Program-made: the position numbers and the translations under genes
Shown: positions 12,204 to 63,003 of the stretch, one piece after another
Layout: each line of letters begins with the position of its first letter
Numbering within the stretch: position 1 is the first letter of the stretch
Notes under the pieces: model-generated
The model's database searches: none
Told to the model about the DNA's origin: nothing
What the model saw: the letters and a program-made list of their open reading frames with translations, nothing else
Assembly (NCBI GenBank): GCA_913057715.1
Contig: CAJXOR010000001.1
Location: 17,539-81,538, forward strand
Direction: 5' to 3'
DNA length: 64,000 nt
From: an uncultured Moraxellaceae bacterium
GTDB taxonomy: Bacteria > Pseudomonadota > Gammaproteobacteria > Pseudomonadales > Moraxellaceae

Positions 12204-12907
12204 CAGGCTTCTTCGACTATCCCAAAAGCGCTGCCTTCGGCCGGGTTCTGCCCAAGAACAAGATCTACGAACACGCAGGCGCAAACACTGCCCTCAAGGA
12301 TCTGTTCGTGCGTGAGGTCGATCAGATCGTCTGGCGCTACAAGCTCGCGCCAGAAACGATCAACCTGAGCGCTACCAAATCGGTGGCCGAAATTCAGATC
12401 TTCAGCATCTCGCTGAAAACCGGCAAGCTGGACGAGACCGTTCTGCGCGCCATAGATAAGGCTATACCGTTTCCCCTGATCTTCGAGTTGAGCCATGGCG
12501 GCAAACGCAGGGCCATGGCGGCCTACAAGCGGCCGAGCGAGGCCGACAGCGCGAAGTGGGTGATCAGCGAGTACTTTGCCACCAACTGGGTGGCCGATAC
12601 CGCCGCCAGGTCGCCCCTGCCGGTCGCGCTCAACCTTGGTGGGCTTTATGACGCGCTTCTGTCCGGCTTGATGCCACAACAGGTTCAGGCGGCACCCGGA
12701 CAGAGCGCGGAAGACATACAGATCCGTGTCGAGCGGATGGAGGCGATCCGCGCCAAGACGCGAGATGTTGAACGGATCAAGGCGCGGCTGGCGCGCGAGA
12801 AGCAATTCAACAAGCGCGTGGCGATTAACGCAGAGCTGCGCGAAGCGAAATTGGAACTAAAACAGCTCACCGGGGCAAAGGCCCCGATGAGCGCACCGAG
12901 TGAATAA
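12200..12907 (+). CDS. DUF4391-like protein with a C-terminal coiled-coil, function unknown
   Basis: 235-aa ORF whose ATG overlaps the SNF2 stop (ATGA at 12200-12203). From memory, the N-terminal region FFDYPKSAAFGRVLPKNKIYEHA...IVWRYKLAPETINL...IPFPLIFEL resembles DUF4391 family members. The C-terminus is charged and heptad-like (RVERMEAIRAKTRDVERIKARLAREKQFNKRVAINAELREAKLELKQL). Confidence 0.7.
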   Translation: MTGFFDYPKSAAFGRVLPKNKIYEHAGANTALKDLFVREVDQIVWRYKLAPETINLSATKSVAEIQIFSISLKTGKLDETVLRAIDKAIPFPLIFELSHGGKRRAMAAYKRPSEADSAKWVISEYFATNWVADTAARSPLPVALNLGGLYDALLSGLMPQQVQAAPGQSAEDIQIRVERMEAIRAKTRDVERIKARLAREKQFNKRVAINAELREAKLELKQLTGAKAPMSAPSE

Positions 12908-12914
12908 GAGGACG

Positions 12915-14855
12915 ATGAGCATGGATAAGATGAAACTGCATAGCCCCGACCTGAGCCAGGACAACATCGCCAAGATCCGCGCTCTGTTCCCCGGCTGCGT
13001 GACCGAGGCATCCGATGACAATGGCAAGCTGCGGCTGGCAATAGACTTCGATCAGCTGCGCCAAGAGCTAAGCGACCACACCGTCGAAGGTGGGCAGGAG
13101 AGGTATCGGCTGGATTGGCCCGGCAAGCGGGAAGCGATGGCGCTTGCGAACGCTCCCATCGCAAAAACGCTTCGCCCCGCACGGGATGAAAGCGTAGCTT
13201 TCGACACCACCCAGAACCTCTTTATCGAAGGCGACAACCTTGAGGCCCTGAAACTGCTGCAAGAAACCTATCTTGGCAAGGTCAAGATGATCTATATCGA
13301 CCCGCCTTATAACACGGGGAATGACTTTGTTTATGATGATGATTTTGCCGAGAGTTCGGCCGAATTTCTAGAACGCTCGAACCAGAAGGATGGTGAAGGC
13401 AATCGAATGGTTGCAAACACAACGGCCAATGGGCGCTTTCACTCCGACTGGCTTACGATGATGTTTGCAAGACTGCGACTGGCAAAAAATCTGCTCACGG
13501 ACGATGGTGCGGTGTTTGTCAGCATAGATGATAACGAGTCTGATAGCTTGATCAAAATAGGTCGAGAGATTTTTGGCGACGAGAACTTCGTCGCGCAATT
13601 GGCTGTTCAGCTTAACCCTCGAGGACGACATCTTGATCGTTTCATCGCCAACACTCATGAGTCTGTCGTTGTCTTCGTAAAGGACGGACTTAATTCCAAC
13701 TGCATTGGCGGGCTGGAAAAAGAAGGAAGAATGGCCGATGAGTACAACAGAAACGACAGTGATGGAGCGTTCAGGCTGCTTGGCCTCAGGAACCGAAACC
13801 AAGCCTTCAATCCAACCACTCGGCCGAACCTCTACTATCCCTTATATGTTTGCCCAAAAAATGGGCTGATATCTTTGATCAATGACGAACTGTTTACTGA
13901 TGAAGTTTGGCCAGATACCCCCGATGGGATTAAGACCTGCTGGACTTGGGGTAGAGAAAAAGTCTCCAAAGAAGGTAGCTTGCTACTTGCAGAAAAATCT
14001 GGAGGCGAATGGAGGATATTCCGAAAAGACTATCTTAACAAGAATGGTGAAGTCACTAAGACGATGGCTAAGTCGCTCTGGGCCGAAAAGGAAATTACGA
14101 ACGACTATGGCCGGTCTTCAGTCAAAGACCTTTTTGGCAAGGCAGTTATGGATTTCCCAAAATCGCCAGCTTTGCTGGAGCGGCTCGTAAAGATAGGTTC
14201 CAATGAAAATGACCTTATATTGGATTTTTTCGCAGGCTCATCATCAACGGCACATGCGATACTATCGACTAACGCTCGAGAAGGATGTCATCGCAGATTC
14301 ATAATGGTTCAATTGCCTGAATCTACGTCAGCAGGCTCAATAGCCCGACAAGAGGGCTATGAAACCATTTCCGAGCTATCCAAGGAACGCATTCGCCGCG
14401 CGGGTCAAAAAATCCTTGAATCGGATTGTCACACCGACTGGAACAAGGACGTCGGTTTCCGTGTCCTGAAGATCGACACGTCGAACATGGAGGACGTCTA
14501 TTACCGTCCTGACGAAGTCAAACAGGCTGACCTGCTTACCGCCGTCGACAATGTCAAACCGGACCGCACGGTCGAAGACCTGCTTTTTCAGGTGCTCGTG
14601 GACTGGGGCGTCGACCTGACGCTGCCCATCCGCCGCGAGACCGTCCAGGGCAAGACCGTGTTCTTCGTCGACGACAACGCGCTGGTCGCATGCTTTGACA
14701 CTGGCATCACCGAGGATCTGGTGAAGGAGCTGGCCGGGCATGAACCGCTGCGCGTCGTCTTCCGCGACAACGGCTTCGTCTCGGATGCGGTGAAGATCAA
14801 CGTCGAACAGATCTTCCGCCAGCTCTCCCCCACCACCGATGTTAAATCGATCTGA
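12915..14855 (+). CDS. mod: Type III restriction-modification methyltransferase (Mod), beta-class N6-adenine MTase
   Basis: Motif [21 protein letters not shown] precedes motif [15 protein letters not shown], with a variable region between them (the TRD position). ATG at 12915 follows AAGAGG; an alternative GTG lies at 12900. Confidence 0.92.
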
Positions 14856-14865
14856 GGGGAACAGC

Positions 14866-17800
14866 ATGTCAGGCGCCATGAAGTTTAAGTTCAAAGTCCA
14901 ACCCTATCAAACCAATGCTGTCGACGCCGTCGTGGACTGTTTTGCCGGTCAACCTTATGTCAGTGGCATCAACTATCGGATCGACCCCGGCCGCAAGGCA
15001 CAGACCAGCGCCTTCGAAGAAGGCTTCAAGAACGCCGATATCTCGTTGAGCGAGGCGCAGGTGCTTGCGAACGTCCAGGGTGTGCAGCGAAGCCAGAACC
15101 TGCCTTTCAGCGAAAGCCTGACCGACTTCACCGTAATCAATGGGCGTGGCGAGCGGACACCAGCGCCAGCGACCTATATCCGCGACGCGCTGGCGGCGAG
15201 CCGCTACCACCTAGACGTCGAGATGGAAACCGGCACTGGCAAGACCTATTGCTACATCAAGACTATCTTTGAGATGAACAAGCGCTTCGGCTGGTCGAAG
15301 TTCATCATCATGGTGCCCAGCATCGCCATCCGCGAAGGCGTCTACAAATCGCTTCAGATCACGGCTGACCACTTCACCGAAAGCTACGGCAAGAAGGCAC
15401 GGTTCTTCATCTACAACTCAAAGCGTCTGCATGAGCTGGAAAGCTTCTCGTCGGACGCTGGCATCAACGTGATGGTCATCAATATTCAGGCCTTTGCTGC
15501 CCGCGGTGCGGATAACCGTCGCATCTACGACGAGCTCGACGACTTCCAATCCCGCCGCCCCATCGACGTGATCGCCAGCAACCGGCCGATCCTGATCCTG
15601 GACGAGCCGCAAAAGATGCAGGGAAACGCGACGATGGAAGCGCTGCCAAAGTTCAAGCCGCTGATGGTCCTACGCTATTCGGCGACCCACAAAACCCAGC
15701 ACAACAGGATCCACCGCCTGGACGCCTTGGACGCCTACAACCAGAAGCTAGTGAAGAAGATCGCCGTACGCGGCATTCAAACGCGCGGTCTGGCCGGAAC
15801 CAATGCTTACCTCTACCTTGAGGGGATCGACATCTCGAAGAAGGCGCCGGTCGCCCGGATTGAGATGGAGGTGAAGCTGAGATCCGGCGAAATCAAACGG
15901 CAACTTCGGCGGCTGGAATTTCGCGACGACCTGTTCACGCTTTCCGGGGAGCTGGATCAGTACAAAGGCTTCACGATCTCTCAGATCGACTACAACCACG
16001 ACACGGTGGAATTCACCAACGGCGAGGTGCTTACGGCTGGCAAGGCCACAGGTGACGTGTCAGAGCACGACATCCGGCGGATCCAGATCCGCGAGACTAT
16101 CAAAGCTCACTTGGATAAGGAAAAGCAGCTCTTCGCTCAAGGGATCAAGGTCCTTTCGCTATTTTTTATCGATGAGGTGGTTAAGTACCGCGACTACGGC
16201 CAGCCGGATGATAATGGAGAGTACGCCCGTGTTTTTGAGGAAGAGTACGAACTTTTAAAGAGCGAGTATCTCTCAGAGCTCGCTATCGACAACGAGGCCT
16301 ACCGAGCGTATCTCGCGGCGATTGACGCGACAAAGACTCATAATGGCTATTTCTCTATCGACAAAAAAACCAAACAGCTAAAGGATCCCAAAGTCGGTAA
16401 GCGAGCTGTCGATTCAGACGACGTAGATGCTTATGACCTTATCTTAAAGGACAAGGAGAGCTTGCTGACGCTACCAATGCCTTCAGACAGTGCCGATCAG
16501 CGCGCCAAAAAAGAGGTTCGATTTATCTTTTCCCACTCTGCGCTACGTGAGGGATGGGATAACCCCAATGTCTTTGTTATGTGCATGTTGAAGCACAGCG
16601 ATAACATGATCTCTAGGCGACAAGAAGTGGGTCGGGGTTTGAGGCTTTCGGTTAACCAGCAGGGTGACAGAATGGATCACTCGGCGACGGTTCATGACAT
16701 CAATGTTCTCACGGTGATCGCGAGCGAAAGCTATAAGGACTTCGTGGGCGGACTTCAAAAAGAAATTGCAGAGACCTTATCTTCACGACCCCGGCAGGCC
16801 ACCGAGGCCTACTTTACCGGCAAGACCGTTAACACCAATGCAGGCCCTATTGAAATCACGCCTGCTATGGCGAAGCAGATCTACAGGTACCTCGTTAAAA
16901 ATGACTACACGGACGACGCTGATCAAATCACTGACGACTATCACAAGGCAAAGGAAGCGGGTACGCTGGCTGAACTGCCAGATGAATTGAGGCCGCATGC
17001 CGATCAGGTATTTGAACTTATTGACAGCGTGTTCAGCGATGCACAGCTGCCTAAGGTTGACGATGGGCGAAAACCAAAAACTAATCCTCTTAACGCCAAC
17101 TTTGAAAAAAAGGAGTTCCAGGAGCTCTGGTCCCGGATCAATCGGAAAGCCGTCTATCGCGTGGACTTCGACTCAGTTGAATTAGTTCGAAAATGTGTCA
17201 GCGCTCTCGATAGCCAGCTCCGCGTGACGCCGCTCCAATATACCGTTCAAGCAGGCATTCAGGCAGATGAGATGACTGACGACCAGTTAAAAGCTGGTGA
17301 CGGTTTCGAGGTGACTACCACTTCCACTCAATACGGTGATTCGGTATTCTCCAGAGTCAAATATGACTTGGTTGGCAAGATCGCAGAAAGCTCTAAACTC
17401 ACACGCCGATCAACCGCCGAAATCCTTTCGGGCTTACAGGCTGTTGTCTTTGCCCAGTTTCAGCAGAATCCGGAGCACTTCATAGCAGAGGCTATAAGAC
17501 TTATAGCTGAGCAGAAGGCGACGATGATCATCGAGCGTCTGAGCTATGACGAGATCGACAATCACTACGATGTCGATATCTTCACTGCTAGTCAGACCGG
17601 TCAAGATTTTTCACGCGCAAGCGCAAAGTTAAAAAAGCACGTCTATGACTACGTTGTCACCGACTCAAACGTCGAAAAGCGGTTTGTGGCAGAGCTGGAT
17701 ACCAGTTCAGAAGTGGTTGTTTATGCGAAGCTTCCTCGCGGTTTTCTGATCCCAACGCCAGTTGGAGACTACAATCCTGACTGGGCAATCTCTTTTAAGA

Positions 17801-17997
17801 ATGAGGGCGTGAAGCATATCTATTTTGTAGCTGAAACCAAGGGCTCGATGTCAACGATGAAGCTACGTGAGATCGAGAAGACCAAGATTGAGTGCGCCAG
17901 AAAGTTTTTTAAAGAAATTGGACGGAAGATCTCGCAAGATAAGGTGAAATATGAGGTGGTCGATAATTACTCTCGTCTTGTCGATATCATCAGATGA
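14866..17997 (+). CDS. res: Type III restriction enzyme Res subunit (helicase plus PD-(D/E)xK nuclease)
   Basis: Motifs [24 protein letters not shown] and LRYSATH, the C-terminal helicase region [18 protein letters not shown]...QEVGRGLRL, and nuclease YNPDWAISF...[11 protein letters not shown] at 14866 follows GAGGGGA; the ORF is open from 14839. Confidence 0.92.
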
Positions 17998-56235: not shown

Positions 56236-59200
56236 TTAGTTGGTAGCTGACAAGTAGACTGAATTAAATGAATTAAAAGAATCACTCACTGAAAAGTTTA
56301 CTCCCAATCCAAGCGCCTTAAAGTGCTCTTTGCCGCAGTCGATTCTAGCTTTTTCCTCAGGACGAAGTGCGCTGCTAAGCAAGGTGCTCTTGGTCTCTAC
56401 TACAAAGTAAAGCTTTTGCTTACCGTCCACTTCAATCAGAACAGCCCAGTCTGGGTTGTAACCTCCAAGGGGGGTGTCGATCTTGAACCAGTCGGGTAAT
56501 TTGGCATAGACCTTTACGTCTTCGCTAAGCTCGAAGCTCTTGGCAAATTTCAGCTCGACTTCGGAGTCGTATACGACGTGGTTGAATACAGATTTATTGC
56601 TTTCAACCATGTTTTTACTTAAATAACCAAATAACTCCTTATCGCTAAAGAGTTCTTGTGCATAGTATTGATCATCACCAATCTTTTGATATTTGATTCC
56701 ATCAACTATAAATAAGCGCATTTGAGATTTTATGATGTTCGACACTTGCTCTATGAACTTTTGCGGATTTAGCTTAAAGGTGCTTAGACGACCACTTTTA
56801 GAGATGATAGATACGATACTTACGCGAGTCAGTTGGGTTTGATCAACTAGATAGCTAATCAGATCAGGCAGCTCGAAAGAATTTGATGAATATAAAATAC
56901 TACTCTGTTCGGACTCTTCAGCATGAACACCGCCCCGATCTATCTCTGTTTTGGCTTTGCGATAGATAAAACGTGCTTTTCCAACTTGAAGATTGTTTCG
57001 TATCTCATCAGCGCACTTATCAATCAATTGGCTGCTGTCAAAGTCTACTCTAAATGATGTTTTGTATTTTATATGATTCCATAGCTCCTTGAACTCAGGA
57101 CTCAGAATCACACCTTTGTTTAGGGATATTTTTTGTTTGTCATTATGATTTTTGATATGAAGGCTGCCTGATACCTTTTTCAGAAGTGCGACAATCTGAG
57201 CGTTATGCTCATTGAACTCCTCTAGTAAGTTCAAATTTCCAGTGCTCAAAGCAAGTTTGAGGCTGTCTTGGATCTTACCCTGGGTATCGATATAATCTAA
57301 AGTTCTGAGTTCTTCCCAAAGCTTCTCAGAAGATTCAACCCCCAGATACTCCTGATTTATGGTACCTGTTGATACTAATATGCTGGCAAATAAGTGCGGC
57401 TCAACCACTCCAAACTTTATACCTTCCTCTTCTTCGATTTCCTTTTGTAGTTGCTCAGCAAACTCCTCATAAGACTCATTTGCCATGACGGTGAGAGTAT
57501 TGACCTCAAAACCGTGTACTCTTTGACCTTGTTGATTGACACAGATACGCAGACCACGACCGATCTCTTGACGCTTTTTCATCACAGAGCTGGTTTCGTT
57601 CAGAGTGCAGATCTGAAAGACGTTTGGGTTATCCCAACCTTCTTTTAGGGCTGAGTGTGAAAAGATAAACTTGAGCGTGGACTCAAAGCTCAACAGCTTC
57701 TCTTTATCTCTCATGATCAAGTGGTAAGCACTTTCATCGGCGGCTGATGTTTTCTTGCCAGCAGAAGAATCTTTTAGTTTTTCGTTGCCAGAAGTGTCTT
57801 TGCCTTTATCTACTGCAAAATACCCGTTATGCACACTGCTGACATATTGATCAAGATCCTGACCTTGGGTCAGATTGCTGTATTTGGGCTTACTCAAAGC
57901 TTTCTTGAGTTCTTCCTCAAACATCTGAGCAAACTTACCTTTTTGAGCGCGACCACTTTCGTCATACCAGCGGTAATTAGCAACCTTGTCGATGAAAAAT
58001 AGACTCAGCACTTTGATACCTTGGTTTTTTAATCTGATTTCTTTTTCTAAGTGCTCATCTATAGTTTTGCGAATTTGCAGCCGCTTTAGCTCGTTTGAGT
58101 CGATCCCACCCGAAGCCTGACCAAGCCTCAATATATCGGCTTTACTGGTGAAGCTGACATACTCGTTTCCAGGTTCGCAGTAGATATCATCAACGATATA
58201 GCCATCGTATAAGTCCCTACCTCCGCTAAATTTAGCACCGTGCAGATCCACACCACTTTTGACTGTGACGATTTTTCTCTTGATGCTGCCGCCTTTGAGG
58301 CTAGCGTCTATCTCAATTTTTGCACTTATTGGGGTTTTTTTATTGTTGACGCTAAGTAGTTTGATATAAGCCGAGTTATGGTTGTCTTGGACTTCGATGC
58401 CAGCGACCTCAATCTGCTTTACCAGTTTTTGCTCATAAGCATCGACCGAATCAAGCTTGTATAGCATGTGGTGCTTTTCAAGGTGAGTAGCAGAGTATCG
58501 CAAAGTGCACATTGGGTTAAGTGAGGCGATGGCCTCTCTACTTGTGTCAGTACTATCTACGCTTTGAGGTTCATCGATGATGACGATAGGGTTAGTTTGC
58601 TGCAAGTAGTTGATCAGCGGCAGTCCATCTGGACCTTTTTCTGTGCCTACCCTATTCATGACGTTATCGTCTCTGTTGAAGGCGTGGATGGTGGTAATCA
58701 GTATGGTTAACTCTGTATTTTCTGCAAAAGACCTTAGGGTTGTGGGATTTAGTTTTGCTTTTTGCCCTGTCTGATAAAGATACGACTCAAACGGGGTGTT
58801 GTTATAAAGTTGTCTGAAGTGTTCTGTTGTCATCTGTATCGACTTGATGACACCCTCTTTAATTGCCACAGATGGCACTACGATGATGAATTTGTTAAAG
58901 CCGTAAAGGTGGTTCATCTCAAATATCGTGCGCAGATATACATAGGTCTTGCCTGTGCCAGTTTCCATCTCGACGGTCAGGTGGATACCTTTTTTAGAAT
59001 CAAACGACTTGGATGGAGCTAAGCCGTTTTTGAGCTGGATCTCACGGATGTTGGCATGTAATGTTTCGTCCTGCAGGATCAATTGGTTGCCTAAAGCTGA
59101 GTCAATGTGGTTTGTAGGCTTTAAGGATAAATCTTGATTTCTTGATATGAACGGGGCTTCGGTAAAACCGCTCTTACAGATCTCTTGACCAGAAAACACA

Positions 59201-59262
59201 GCAGTCACAGAAGCTATGGCTTGCTGTTGATAGTCCAGATTGGCGTCAAACTCAATCTTCAT
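56236..59262 (-). CDS. res: Type III restriction enzyme Res subunit (second system)
   Basis: A paralogue of 14866-17997, with [56 protein letters not shown] and nuclease YNPDWAVLI...YFVVETKS. ATG at 59262 lies 1 nt after the mod stop. The gene is visibly AT-rich. Confidence 0.9.
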   Translation of the reverse strand: MKIEFDANLDYQQQAIASVTAVFSGQEICKSGFTEAPFISRNQDLSLKPTNHIDSALGNQLILQDETLHANIREIQLKNGLAPSKSFDSKKGIHLTVEMETGTGKTYVYLRTIFEMNHLYGFNKFIIVVPSVAIKEGVIKSIQMTTEHFRQLYNNTPFESYLYQTGQKAKLNPTTLRSFAENTELTILITTIHAFNRDDNVMNRVGTEKGPDGLPLINYLQQTNPIVIIDEPQSVDSTDTSREAIASLNPMCTLRYSATHLEKHHMLYKLDSVDAYEQKLVKQIEVAGIEVQDNHNSAYIKLLSVNNKKTPISAKIEIDASLKGGSIKRKIVTVKSGVDLHGAKFSGGRDLYDGYIVDDIYCEPGNEYVSFTSKADILRLGQASGGIDSNELKRLQIRKTIDEHLEKEIRLKNQGIKVLSLFFIDKVANYRWYDESGRAQKGKFAQMFEEELKKALSKPKYSNLTQGQDLDQYVSSVHNGYFAVDKGKDTSGNEKLKDSSAGKKTSAADESAYHLIMRDKEKLLSFESTLKFIFSHSALKEGWDNPNVFQICTLNETSSVMKKRQEIGRGLRICVNQQGQRVHGFEVNTLTVMANESYEEFAEQLQKEIEEEEGIKFGVVEPHLFASILVSTGTINQEYLGVESSEKLWEELRTLDYIDTQGKIQDSLKLALSTGNLNLLEEFNEHNAQIVALLKKVSGSLHIKNHNDKQKISLNKGVILSPEFKELWNHIKYKTSFRVDFDSSQLIDKCADEIRNNLQVGKARFIYRKAKTEIDRGGVHAEESEQSSILYSSNSFELPDLISYLVDQTQLTRVSIVSIISKSGRLSTFKLNPQKFIEQVSNIIKSQMRLFIVDGIKYQKIGDDQYYAQELFSDKELFGYLSKNMVESNKSVFNHVVYDSEVELKFAKSFELSEDVKVYAKLPDWFKIDTPLGGYNPDWAVLIEVDGKQKLYFVVETKSTLLSSALRPEEKARIDCGKEHFKALGLGVNFSVSDSFNSFNSVYLSATN

Positions 59263-59263
59263 A

Positions 59264-61308
59264 TCATAGACTCCAGATGCTTTTGATACCAGCTTGTTTG
59301 AGTATCTGCATGGCGTTGGTCTTAACCACGTCTCCAGCAAATCCCGTATCTTTAAAGACCACACTCATGGATGCTTGCTTTAACTGGTCTTTGAGTTTAG
59401 CGATTCCTTCGACTACCTCCAAAGTGATGTTATCGCTCACGCAAACAACCAGCTTACCTGAGTCGATTTCATAAACTTTTTGCCCGTCAGCACTGTGCTC
59501 GATAATGGGTAGTGTCAGCTCAAATCCTGACTTAATTATTACCTCATAGAGCAGGTCAGTATCGGTTCGATCGGTTTTTATGTTTGAGATTTGGTCTACT
59601 AAATCTTGTTCACTCAAGTCAAAGTCTGCTTCCCAGGACTTAATATTGGTGGAATCAAGTTTAAACACTTTAAGTCCCAGGTCACCCTCGTAGTCTGGAT
59701 TTTCTTCTTTAAATTTAGATATGGTTAGTAGAATTCTTTTTTTAAAGACACCGCAAACATTTTCAATAGAAGAAAGTCCGTCTTTTGAAAAATAATCTTT
59801 TTTATCTTTATCTTTTAGATTTTCAGGTAGTTGAACAGAAATTGACTGTATATATGAACCTCTATCTATATTTTTTGAAAAACAGGCATGTGCGGTGCTT
59901 CCTGATCCAGAAAAAAATCTAGTACTATTCCTTTTTCTCCACCCTTAAAGCAGAGCTCAATAAGCCTTTCTATAAATTTAATTGGTTTCTTTCCATTCGG
60001 GTAAGGAACACTTCCTTCTAAAGCAACACTACTCCATGAGAGATCATTCCATAATGTCCCGATCTTATCTTTTTTGATAATCCCTTCGCTTGATTTTTCA
60101 CACACCCCACTGAGGTAACTAATTAATCTTTTTGTTTTACCGATAAACGAAACTTTAGTTCGCTTTCCTTTATTTTTTCCTGAAATTGGTTTGTAATATA
60201 TATTTATTAATCCATCATAGTTAGGGGCAGCATTTTTAACGCGCTCTCTTATAGATGTTTGAGCATTTTCTGTAGTTAGTATTTGGTCAAAATATTTTTC
60301 ATAAATTTTATTAATGTCGATATTCTCTTCTTTTGATAATTGAGAAACACTTTTAAGCTCGAAATCTTTTACTGTGAATACATCTATGTCATTATTTGAG
60401 CCATCTTTGATTGTTTTCAGAAAGCTCTCTGTACCATTTTTTACCATTACTTTAGTGTAAGCAAAAGTTTTACCCTCTAGTTTCCGATCACTAATGTATT
60501 TTTCTAAATTTTCTTTCTTATAGACTTGATTAAACTTTTTAAATAATTCTCCACCAGAGTAGCAAATAAGATATTCTATATTTTTCTTTAATCGTTTATC
60601 TTCTCCACCACCACTTGCTCCAGAACTATCCTTAGATTTTACGCTAACTAAATTAATAAAATTTTCCTCTCCAAATATTTCATCACAAATCTTCCGAAGA
60701 TTTGCCACTTCATTATCATCAATACTGATGAATATAACTCCGTCTTCTTTAAGTAGATTTCTAGCAAGCTTTAATCGCGGATACATCATATTTAGCCAGT
60801 TGGTATGGTATCGACCACTGGTTTCTGGATTGTCTGAGTAGGGGCGACCGCCTTCACCGACTTGACCGGTGATCTCTTTGTAATTTTTAATATTGTCCGA
60901 GAAGTCGTCTTCATATACAAAATCGTTCCCCGTGTTGTAGGGTGGATCGATATAGATCATCTTCACTTTTTTGTGGTAGCTCTTTTGAAGCAGTTTTAGC
61001 ACCTCTAAGTTGTCGCCTTCTATAAACAAGTTTCCGGTGGAATCCCAGTCAACAGACTCCTCCTCGCACGGCCGAAGGGTTCCTGTGCTTGGAGTTTGGG
61101 CGAGTCTGCGCGCTTGGTTCTTGCCGTTCCAAGTAAAACTGTAGCGCTCCTCCCGATCCTCGACATGTTCACCCAACACTTCTCGAAGCGTGTCGAAATC
61201 TACCTTGCCCTCGGTAAAGGCTTCTGGGAAAAGCTGCTTGAGCTGGGATATGTTGTCTGCAACGATATCTTGGGTTGCGCTGTCCATGCTGGGTATGACT
61301 TTACTCAC
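59264..61308 (-). pseudogene. mod: Type III Mod methyltransferase split by a 1-nt frameshift at an A7/T7 tract (phase-OFF allele, pseudogene or homopolymer sequencing error)
   Basis: The N-terminal ORF (59866-61308) carries [19 protein letters not shown] and ends VLDFFLDQEAPHM*. Adding one T to the T7 tract gives DFFSGSGSTAHA (motif I). The reading frame then runs without stops into ORF 59264-59668, whose sequence aligns with the C-terminus of Mod1. Confidence 0.85.
59911..59917 (-). repeat. Homopolymeric A7 (T7 on the coding strand) at the mod frameshift site
   Basis: The plus strand reads CCAG-AAAAAAA-TCTAG. T8 on the coding strand would restore the frame. Confidence 0.9.
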
Positions 61309-61422: not shown

Positions 61423-61446
61423 AAAAAAGCCCCCGAATCGGAGGCC
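61423..61446 (-). terminator. Probable rho-independent terminator after the EAL gene
   Basis: The minus strand reads GCCTCCG-ATT-CGGGGGC (one mismatch) followed by T6. Confidence 0.45.
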
Positions 61447-61464: not shown

Positions 61465-63003
61465 CTAGGCAGACAAAATTGGGCTAGTGCTAACAGGTGC
61501 CACGGGCGTCTCCAAACTCCACTCTAGGAACTGCTTGAGCGCCATGGGCCTGGCGATCCCGTAACCCTGAGCATAGGTTGCGCCATATCCGGTGACGATG
61601 CTAAGCGCCTCGGCGTCTTCCACCCCTTCGACCACCGTGGCAATCTGCAAGCGCTGGCACAGCTCGATCATCGATAAAACCAGCGCTTGATAGTGGCTAC
61701 TGGTGCTGATGGTGCGCACAAAACTTTGGTCGATCTTGATCTCGCTGAACTGGATGTTGTGAAATGACTGCAAGGACGACTCACCGGTACCAAAGTCATC
61801 TAGCGAGATGGTGAAACCCAAGTCTTGTAAGCGCTTGATGTTGGCGGTGGCTTCTTCTGAGTTGTAGATCCAAAAGCGTTCGGTGATTTCGATGATGATC
61901 TTTGAGGCGCTGATCTGGTGTTCTGCGAGTTTTGACTCCAAGAAGTCGATCATCTGGGGGTTGGTGTCTTTAAAAGAAAAATTGATCGCAATCGAGATAT
62001 CGTGCCCCAGTAACTCAAGCTGGCGGGCATCGGCAAACGCGCGCTCAATCACCCACGCGGTAATTCGGTTGATCAAACCGATCTCCTCCGACAGGGGGAT
62101 GAACTCGTCTGGCGGGATATTGCCAAGTTTTGGGTCTGTCCAGCGAATCAGTGCTTCCAGTGATCGGGTCTCACCGGTTTTCAGATCAATCTTGGGTTGG
62201 TAGGCCAGGTGGAAGTGATCGTCGTGCAAGGCATCGTTGATCTTGTGGGCGATGTTGCGCTTATCAAGCGCGCGTATGTGCTGATAGCGCACTACCCCGC
62301 TGTAGCCGTACACCACGACCCCGTAGCTGACGCAAAAGCAGCTGATCGTGTAGTAGAGGTTCAGGATCAGCAGCCACGGCTCCCCCCAAGGAATCAGCCC
62401 TTGGTTGAAGTACCAGCCAGTGATCGCGATCAGGGTGCAGATCAGTAGCAGCGAACCGGCGGTGAACCAGCGAATTCGTGCGCCATCAAAAAAGTGGTAG
62501 GTCAGCACTGCGTAGGTCAGCGTATAGGGTAAAAATGTCCAGTGGCCAATCAGCTCAGCGGTGCGCTGGTTCGGCGCCAAGACGATCGCCATAAACGAAG
62601 CAGCAGCCAGCGCGTATAGCAAGGTTGGTGCCCAGGCGTTATCACGGATAAAACTATAGGCTTTAAACGAGGTGATCAGTGTGGACTTGAGGATGATCAG
62701 GGTCAGCAGAGCCAAACTGATCGGAGACGCCAGAGGCAGCACTCGCTTGATGGCGTCTGGTAGCAAAGCGGCAATTGGTGAGCCGGTCAGCGACTGAAAG
62801 CTTAAGTTATACAGGCAGTAAGAGAAAAACCCGATGGCGCCGATGGCCAGCATCATCGAGGCTTGCTTGTTTTGGTTATGAAACCAGTGCAGCAAACTGG
62901 TCATGGCGACCAGTATGGCGCTCGCCAGACAAAAACAGCTCACGAACCCGTAAAAGTAAATCAGCCAGTCTGTACTTTGCCAAAGCACGCTCATATAACC
63001 CAA
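61465..63003 (-). CDS. Membrane-anchored EAL-domain cyclic-di-GMP phosphodiesterase
   Basis: About 230 aa of N-terminal TM helices, then the EAL domain (SLEALIRW..., ITERF, SLDDFGTG, KIDQSF, VVEGVE). Confidence 0.85.
   Translation of the reverse strand: MGYMSVLWQSTDWLIYFYGFVSCFCLASAILVAMTSLLHWFHNQNKQASMMLAIGAIGFFSYCLYNLSFQSLTGSPIAALLPDAIKRVLPLASPISLALLTLIILKSTLITSFKAYSFIRDNAWAPTLLYALAAASFMAIVLAPNQRTAELIGHWTFLPYTLTYAVLTYHFFDGARIRWFTAGSLLLICTLIAITGWYFNQGLIPWGEPWLLILNLYYTISCFCVSYGVVVYGYSGVVRYQHIRALDKRNIAHKINDALHDDHFHLAYQPKIDLKTGETRSLEALIRWTDPKLGNIPPDEFIPLSEEIGLINRITAWVIERAFADARQLELLGHDISIAINFSFKDTNPQMIDFLESKLAEHQISASKIIIEITERFWIYNSEEATANIKRLQDLGFTISLDDFGTGESSLQSFHNIQFSEIKIDQSFVRTISTSSHYQALVLSMIELCQRLQIATVVEGVEDAEALSIVTGYGATYAQGYGIARPMALKQFLEWSLETPVAPVSTSPILSA

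Follow-up and report, generated by a model that had tools for sequence, protein, structure and literature searches.

Does a modification gene that is broken at a run of identical bases represent a switch caught in its off state, a plain mutation, or an error of the assembly? The question is raised by mod2, the second Type III modification gene in a 64,000-nucleotide (nt) stretch of the genome of an uncultured Moraxellaceae bacterium (contig CAJXOR010000001.1, positions 17,539 to 81,538 of the forward strand; this whole stretch is called the window here, and all coordinates refer to it). The gene lies directly upstream of its restriction partner, res2, and its reading frame is interrupted at a run of seven T residues (T7) within the S-adenosylmethionine (AdoMet)-binding motif I. 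We consider it probable that mod2 recently lost a base by slipped-strand deletion from a T8 run of incidental origin, that the shortened run is the consensus state of the clone, and that the gene is a fresh loss-of-function allele and not an evolved contingency switch.

A Type III modification gene divided between two frames

The coding strand of mod2 (61308-59264, minus strand) reads GTA CTA GAT TTT TTT CTG GAT CAG GAA GCA CCG CAC ATG CCT GTT TTT CAA AAA ATA TAG around the T run. The parts of the locus, and the paralogous pair with which it is compared below, are the following:

59866-61308, minus strand: frame-0 part of mod2, from a GTG start at 61308 to a premature TAG at 59866, with a product of 480 amino acids (aa)
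59911-59917, minus strand: T7 run (GAT TTT TTT C) at the Asp-Phe-Phe/Ser-Gly-Ser-Gly of AdoMet-binding motif I, the site of the frame break as placed by alignment
59264-59911, minus strand: -1-frame part of mod2, 215 open codons from SGSGSTAHA to KSIWSL, closed by a TGA (59266-59264) that is the normal mod stop
56236-59262, minus strand: res2, an intact Type III restriction subunit of 1008 aa, with its ATG 1 nt after the mod2 stop (TGAtATG)
12900-17997, plus strand: Mod1/Res1 pair, the intact paralogous comparator (Mod1 at 12900-14855)

The frame-0 product terminates in VLDFFLDQEAPHMPVFQKI, its stop lying 15 codons past the T7 run and its last 14 residues being out of frame. It contains the target-recognition region and motif IV (IDPPYN), the latter within the stretch IYIDPPYN at residues 118-125, which is invariant in an alignment of 28 sequences. 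Entered at 59911, the -1 frame reads TCT GGA TCA GGA AGC ACC GCA CAT GCC, which translates as SGSGSTAHACFSKN, and continues to the end of motif I and on through the QLPE motif and the C-terminal domain, taking in an open reading frame (ORF) of 134 aa at 59264-59668. Such openness is not expected by chance, as none of 20,000 shuffles of the same stretch was open, and the remaining two frames contain 14 and 26 stops.

The position of the lesion can be narrowed by alignment with 27 intact homologues. Asp464 is in frame 0, the Ser-Gly-Ser-Gly is in frame -1, and the near-invariant LDFF[AS]GS motif requires its two Phe residues, so that the missing base must fall inside the T run; from this comparison we infer T8 as the only parsimonious ancestral state. 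The FxGxG of motif I, expected after the recognition domain in a single frame, is accordingly absent from mod2 as it stands, where DFF and SGSGST are split between frames 0 and -1, and is found only in the read-through product.

The identity of the gene is supported on both sides of the break. The 480-aa piece belongs to the Pfam family N6_N4_Mtase (PF01555; 2.2e-24), and the upstream part is 51% identical to the N-terminus of Mod1 (E 1e-72). Read through, the gene gives a product of 681 aa that matches the Type III Mod structures 6k0w_B (8.7e-57) and EcoP15I (4zcf_A; 1.4e-56) and aligns end to end with the 27 intact homologues (667-701 aa), keeping every invariant column, 16 of which lie after the break. 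To judge from these matches, mod2 encodes an EcoP15I-like beta-class N6-adenine methyltransferase, the modification subunit of a Type III system, in which the contiguity of motif I has been lost. Its neighbour res2 contains the Pfam domains ResIII (PF04851) and RE_endonuc (PF19778), resembles the Res subunit of EcoP15I (4zcf_C; 4.4e-63) and the NCBIfam model of Type III endonucleases (NF012027; 3.9e-112), and carries the Walker A motif GTGKT, a DEPQ motif and a C-terminal PD...ExK endonuclease motif. Mod1, whose motif I is encoded by GAT TTT TTC GCA, is accompanied by a Res1 that is 34% identical to Res2, and the mod2/res2 system is distinct from the intact Mod1/Res1 system of the same window.

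These results agree with the structural claims of a preliminary description of the locus, which had been made from the sequence alone. It had placed a T7 run at 59911-59917, followed by an early stop, and the sequence is as claimed, with the 480-aa ORF and its VLDFFLDQEAPHMPVFQKI end. It had also proposed that one extra T would give a protein with a canonical motif I, and the read-through product does retain all invariant residues. The roughly 240 nt reported as free of stops in the shifted frame prove to be an underestimate, since all 215 codons are open to the TGA at 59266-59264, and this frame does join the ORF 59264-59668 and align with the C-terminus of Mod1 (34% identity, E 2e-31). The letters given for motif I of Mod1 are present in that protein, and the overall identification, a second Type III mod put out of action by the lack of one base in the T run of motif I, is borne out by the N6_N4_Mtase domain, the match to EcoP15I Mod and the intact adjoining res.

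The mod2/res2 operon (window 56236-61000) has a guanine-plus-cytosine content (GC) of 0.30-0.45, lower than the 0.50-0.57 of the EAL-domain and SIMPL genes on either side, and this low GC points to a horizontally acquired chromosomal block; no integrase is visible at the block. As a separate observation, the short contigs L019 and L020, from two low-coverage assemblies of one sample, have the same first position, 61495. It falls within the EAL-domain gene (61465-63003, minus strand), close to its 3' end, and lies upstream of a terminator at 61428-61446. The shared start may mark a gap in coverage, or a branch of the assembly graph at the margin of the acquired block.

A recent slip or a reversible switch

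The broken allele is not confined to a single assembly. About 10 contigs carry identical copies of the truncated product, of the 134-aa ORF downstream and of Res2. All of them are T7, and they come from ENA (metaSPAdes NODE_ and MEGAHIT k119_ contigs), JGI (3300038708), Logan (SRR3933257), NCBI and a SPIRE-style assembly of SAMN05416836; ERZ1743942, ERZ1743505 and ERZ27299753 are among the accessions. T7 is thereby found in at least six public assemblies made by different assemblers; four pipelines are represented, as are two or more read sets that differ in depth, and over lengths of up to 10 kb the contigs match the window at 100% identity.

The run itself appears to be a by-product of codon choice for Asp-Phe-Phe-Ser in an AT-rich segment: TTT makes up 79% of the Phe codons in mod2, and the chance of obtaining GAT TTT TTT TCT for these four residues is roughly 6-9%. 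Under a recent slip, the course of events would be simple. A low-GC Type III operon would have been acquired horizontally, and mod2 would, before or after the cassette described below entered this locus, have lost one T (T8 to T7). The T8 run would have existed through codon choice in the AT-rich cassette, with no need for selection on mutability. The frame-0 Mod2 product retains the DPPY motif and the recognition domain and lacks an intact FxGxG loop and the C-terminal domain. In EcoP1I and EcoP15I, Res is active only when complexed with Mod, and because of this dependence restriction by system 2 should be off together with methylation. Lost translational coupling, and possibly polarity, should in addition reduce the expression of res2. 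The cell would be unharmed and would retain system 1, and T7 could in principle revert, at the low rate usual for A/T runs of 8 nt.

The age of the break can be gauged from a sister lineage, whose Res2 variant is 96% identical at the amino acid level and which is represented by the contigs L185:1-4638 (ENA ERZ27264787) and L186:1-4456 (ERZ23498964), the latter from marine biofilm metagenomes (PMC6355793; sample SAMN08714533). The sister mod is a continuous ORF of at least 419 codons that runs into res, and mod is therefore intact in that lineage. Compared by blastn, sister and window are 90% identical at the nucleotide level in the conserved 5' mod segment, of which the contigs cover 84-87 nt, and 93.5% from 59712 through res into the downstream flank. 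The central part of the two mod genes, about 730-950 nt long (727 nt in the sister cassette), is unrelated, and corresponds in the window to one further feature:

59713-60660, minus strand: allele-specific low-GC cassette (GC 0.30; 0.33 in the sister) that holds the target-recognition domain and motif I

Different recognition-domain alleles thus lie between conserved 5' and 3' mod regions at this locus, and mod2 accordingly exists as at least two alleles with different recognition-domain/motif I cassettes, evidence of allelic cassette exchange at the locus. Motif I of the sister is encoded by GAT TTT TTT GCA, a T7 run that is in frame. Between window and sister, the ratio of nonsynonymous to synonymous substitution rates (dN/dS) is 0.16 over the last 149 mod codons and 0.14 over the last 100, as against 0.13 in res, with dS at about 0.17-0.33. 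Constraint downstream of the break is not visibly relaxed, as would be expected if the frameshift were young relative to the divergence of the two lineages or if the downstream frame were still used; the likeness of its dN/dS to that of res argues for a recent break.

The strongest competitor of a recent slip is the phasevarion-type switch proposed in the preliminary description, in which a short T8/T7 contingency repeat would toggle Mod2, and hence Res2, reversibly, the assemblies having caught a majority OFF state. Several observations speak for such a switch and weigh against our preference. The break falls exactly in a homopolymer, where a single added T restores a perfect gene. Neither res2 nor the mod frame downstream of the break shows decay, and purifying selection acts on both, which suits a locus that is ON part of the time as well as it suits a very recent mutation. 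Alternative target-recognition domain (TRD) alleles, as found at mod2, are a feature often seen in the mod groups of phasevarions, and other members of the same Mod family bear classic switching repeats. Runs of 7-8 nt can switch in some species, and as Atack et al. note that G runs of this length can phase-vary, length cut-offs are conventions. Furthermore, all T7 copies belong to one clone (100% identity), so that the agreeing assemblies are not independent populations; consensus contigs conceal minority variants; and k-mer coverage is low (7.6 and 2.9).

We nevertheless regard a reversible switch as rather unlikely. The T8 allele is absent from every assembly and protein collection searched: the roughly 10 contigs, clonal as they are, include no length variant of the allele, and among 5.8 billion proteins there was no intact near-identical Mod2, the best full-length match being 65% identical. 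A 98% match (P0004) was rejected as an intact homologue, being the same truncated product with a later start. Tract-length variants from T5 to T11 in the exact flanking context gave no hits in JGI metagenome contigs, which is weak evidence given that the window's own genome may be outside the scan. The run is also short by published standards, the mononucleotide cut-off being at least 9 in a survey of Type III phasevarions (PMC5909438) and the cut-off for A/T runs at least 10 in PhasomeIt (PMC6321876). With T7, and T8 inferred for the ON state, mod2 is under both, and the acknowledged shorter exceptions are G runs (G/C among the short-run precedents generally). No other repeats occur within mod2/res2. 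Finally, the run codes for near-invariant residues of a catalytic motif, as expected from codon usage, and is conserved neither in the sister allele nor in relatives.

The relatives deserve a closer look, tract length in related strains having been named in the preliminary description as a check on its proposal. Among 135 relatives, drawn from both genomes and metagenomes, motif I contains a T run of 2 (26 loci), 3 (46), 4 (19), 5 (10), 6 (19), 7 (14) or 8 (1) nt, mostly broken by TTC. It is in frame in all of them, including all 15 with T7 or T8, and the closest intact homologue of mod2 has DYFAGS at motif I; a switch at this site is not borne out. Similarly, 128 of 131 relatives encode Mod in a single frame, and none of the 131 loci is broken at the motif I site. 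In the other three, the frame changes somewhere between the N-terminal region and what follows motif I, and each carries a repeat of another kind. In a Thiolinea sp. metagenome-assembled genome (MAG; JBATRF010000057.1), the homologous mod ORF contains (AGCC)x10.8 (L038:4397-4439) and the frame changes across the repeat, a textbook phasevarion repeat of the modA type, apparently OFF, in an environmental sulfur bacterium. A MAG of Candidatus Caenarcaniphilales (CANHDW010000018.1) has a G9 run at the frame change, in the conserved EIFGE region of its mod (L050:3616-3624), which makes it a candidate for a poly-G phase-variable mod in a non-photosynthetic relative of the cyanobacteria. The archaeal MAG of Candidatus Methanovirga, from termite gut (JAISZW010000268.1), contains (AG)x10 in the homologous mod (L069:1935-1954), with N- and C-terminal parts in different frames; the change of frame may or may not coincide with the repeat. 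Since out-of-frame relatives bear long classic repeats, real switches in the family of mod2 look unlike T7. Together with the missing T8 allele, the published cut-offs, the codon-usage origin and the lack of conservation of the run, this leaves the proposed phasevarion without support.

Leaky decoding, artefact and rescue as less likely readings

A recent slip would also be distinguished from an allele that is broken in the DNA and mended in expression. In frame 0 the mod2 run forms a T TTT TTT slippery heptamer (X XXY YYZ), and a -1 slip after GAT TTT TTT would read TCT GGA TCA. Either such a ribosomal slip or the insertion of one U by RNA polymerase would yield the wild-type DFFSGSG, and thus a small amount of Mod2, whether or not Res2 is active as well. 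The geometry of the heptamer can be read directly from the sequence, and leaky decoding would explain purifying selection downstream of the break. There is also precedent, as in Escherichia coli non-programmed -1 slippage, at T_TTT among other sites, leads to suppression of one-base deletions at about 1-10% (PMC10861913), and transcriptional single-base insertions occur in A/T runs, rising exponentially with run length (PMC5574713). The same transcriptome study, however, reports no case in which slippage restores the frame of a pseudogene (PMC5574713). No stimulatory RNA structure was found 3' of the run (z -0.70, with 44 of 200 shuffled sequences folding equally well), and the two-frame layout is unconserved, 128 of 131 relatives being single-frame and none broken at this site; programmed -1 frameshifting was rejected on these two grounds, the presence of the heptamer notwithstanding. 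A recent lesion, moreover, accounts for the low dN/dS equally well. Leaky decoding is therefore, in our estimate, unlikely, clearly more so than a switch. Slightly less likely still is its extension, by which the T7 allele would be a maintained attenuated state that supplies a little full-length Mod2 and so runs the Type III system at low dose; if true, it would explain the unrelaxed selection on res2 and on the downstream mod frame.

Of the readings with a probability of their own, an artefact fares worst. It would hold that the true genome is T8 and the gene intact, one T having been lost in sequencing or assembly, and the preliminary description had listed a homopolymer sequencing error among its alternatives. 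Homopolymers are the classic place for indel miscalls, k-mer coverage stands at just 7.6 and 2.9, and several assemblies may share the same reads. T7 nevertheless emerges whichever of the four pipelines is taken, and from at least two read sets that differ in depth. Two of the contigs (L020:1649-1692 and L104:6637-6655) end in CTGTCTCTTATACACATCT, the untrimmed Nextera transposase adapter, and one called protein (P0125) begins with MCIRDR, the peptide of Nextera adapter read-through; the adapter at the contig ends identifies the libraries as Illumina. Illumina consensus errors at runs of 7-8 nt are rare. In the 2.23-Mb genome, moreover, 966 A/T runs of at least 7 nt were counted, and the mod2 run alone splits a long ORF, none of the other 965 doing so; 779 of these others are A/T7 runs, 22 of them inside the window. 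Two further runs that had seemed to break an ORF, A8 on contigs C5 and C18, proved to be ordinary gene ends, and a systematic homopolymer error of the assembly was rejected. An artefact is thus highly improbable, and the lesion in mod2 is real and the consensus state of the clone. Apart from this, L020, L104 and P0125 document that deposited public metagenome assemblies are contaminated by adapter sequence.

Two further ways of rescuing the system can be dealt with briefly. A split enzyme that reassembles from two fragments was rejected, because the -1 frame of mod2 offers no ATG, GTG or TTG start before 59668, so that motif I cannot belong to a fragment translated from a start of its own. Mod1 is unlikely to rescue Res2, Res1 and Res2 being 34% identical and the N-termini of the two Mod proteins 51%.

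Comparison with known Type III systems

The direct importance of a recent slip in mod2 is small, as it would mean that one more restriction-modification (R-M) system has been lost to a homopolymer slip in a marine bacterium that keeps another intact Type III system. Its value lies rather in calibration, since a mod gene broken at a homopolymer need not be a phasevarion. If reads were to reveal T7/T8 heterogeneity, the switching of Type III systems by short A/T runs would be extended to a free-living marine lineage, which would be of moderate interest.

In its organisation the locus follows EcoP15I and EcoP1I (4ZCF): a mod-res operon, a Mod with the order DPPY motif IV, recognition domain and FxGxG motif I, and a Res composed of a helicase-type ATPase and a C-terminal PD-(D/E)xK nuclease. 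It differs from them in that mod2 is split in motif I, with no complete Mod encoded, and in that its recognition cassette is unrelated to those of characterised enzymes. With modH, modJ and modL of Helicobacter pylori and modU of Campylobacter upsaliensis (PMC5909438), mod2 shares a mod ORF broken at a mononucleotide run, a res that depends on mod, and recognition-domain alleles. Yet the runs of these genes consist of G/C, are typically at least 9 nt long and vary in length between strains and within cultures, whereas the T7/T8 of mod2 codes for catalytic residues, is below the cut-off, has displayed no length variation among contigs that all belong to one clone, and is absent from relatives. 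The modA genes of Haemophilus influenzae and Neisseria, which switch through AGCC/AGTC repeats, belong to the same protein family, and the Thiolinea relative with its (AGCC)x10.8 resembles them in this respect; mod2, in contrast, has no tetranucleotide array.

R-M genes inactivated by frameshifts are well known, for instance among the many disrupted methyltransferases in H. pylori methylomes. As in these cases, a single indel in mod2 disables one component and leaves its partner intact, a state that is tolerated as the nuclease depends on the methylase. It is this category that mod2 fits best, as a new instance of a known and common event.

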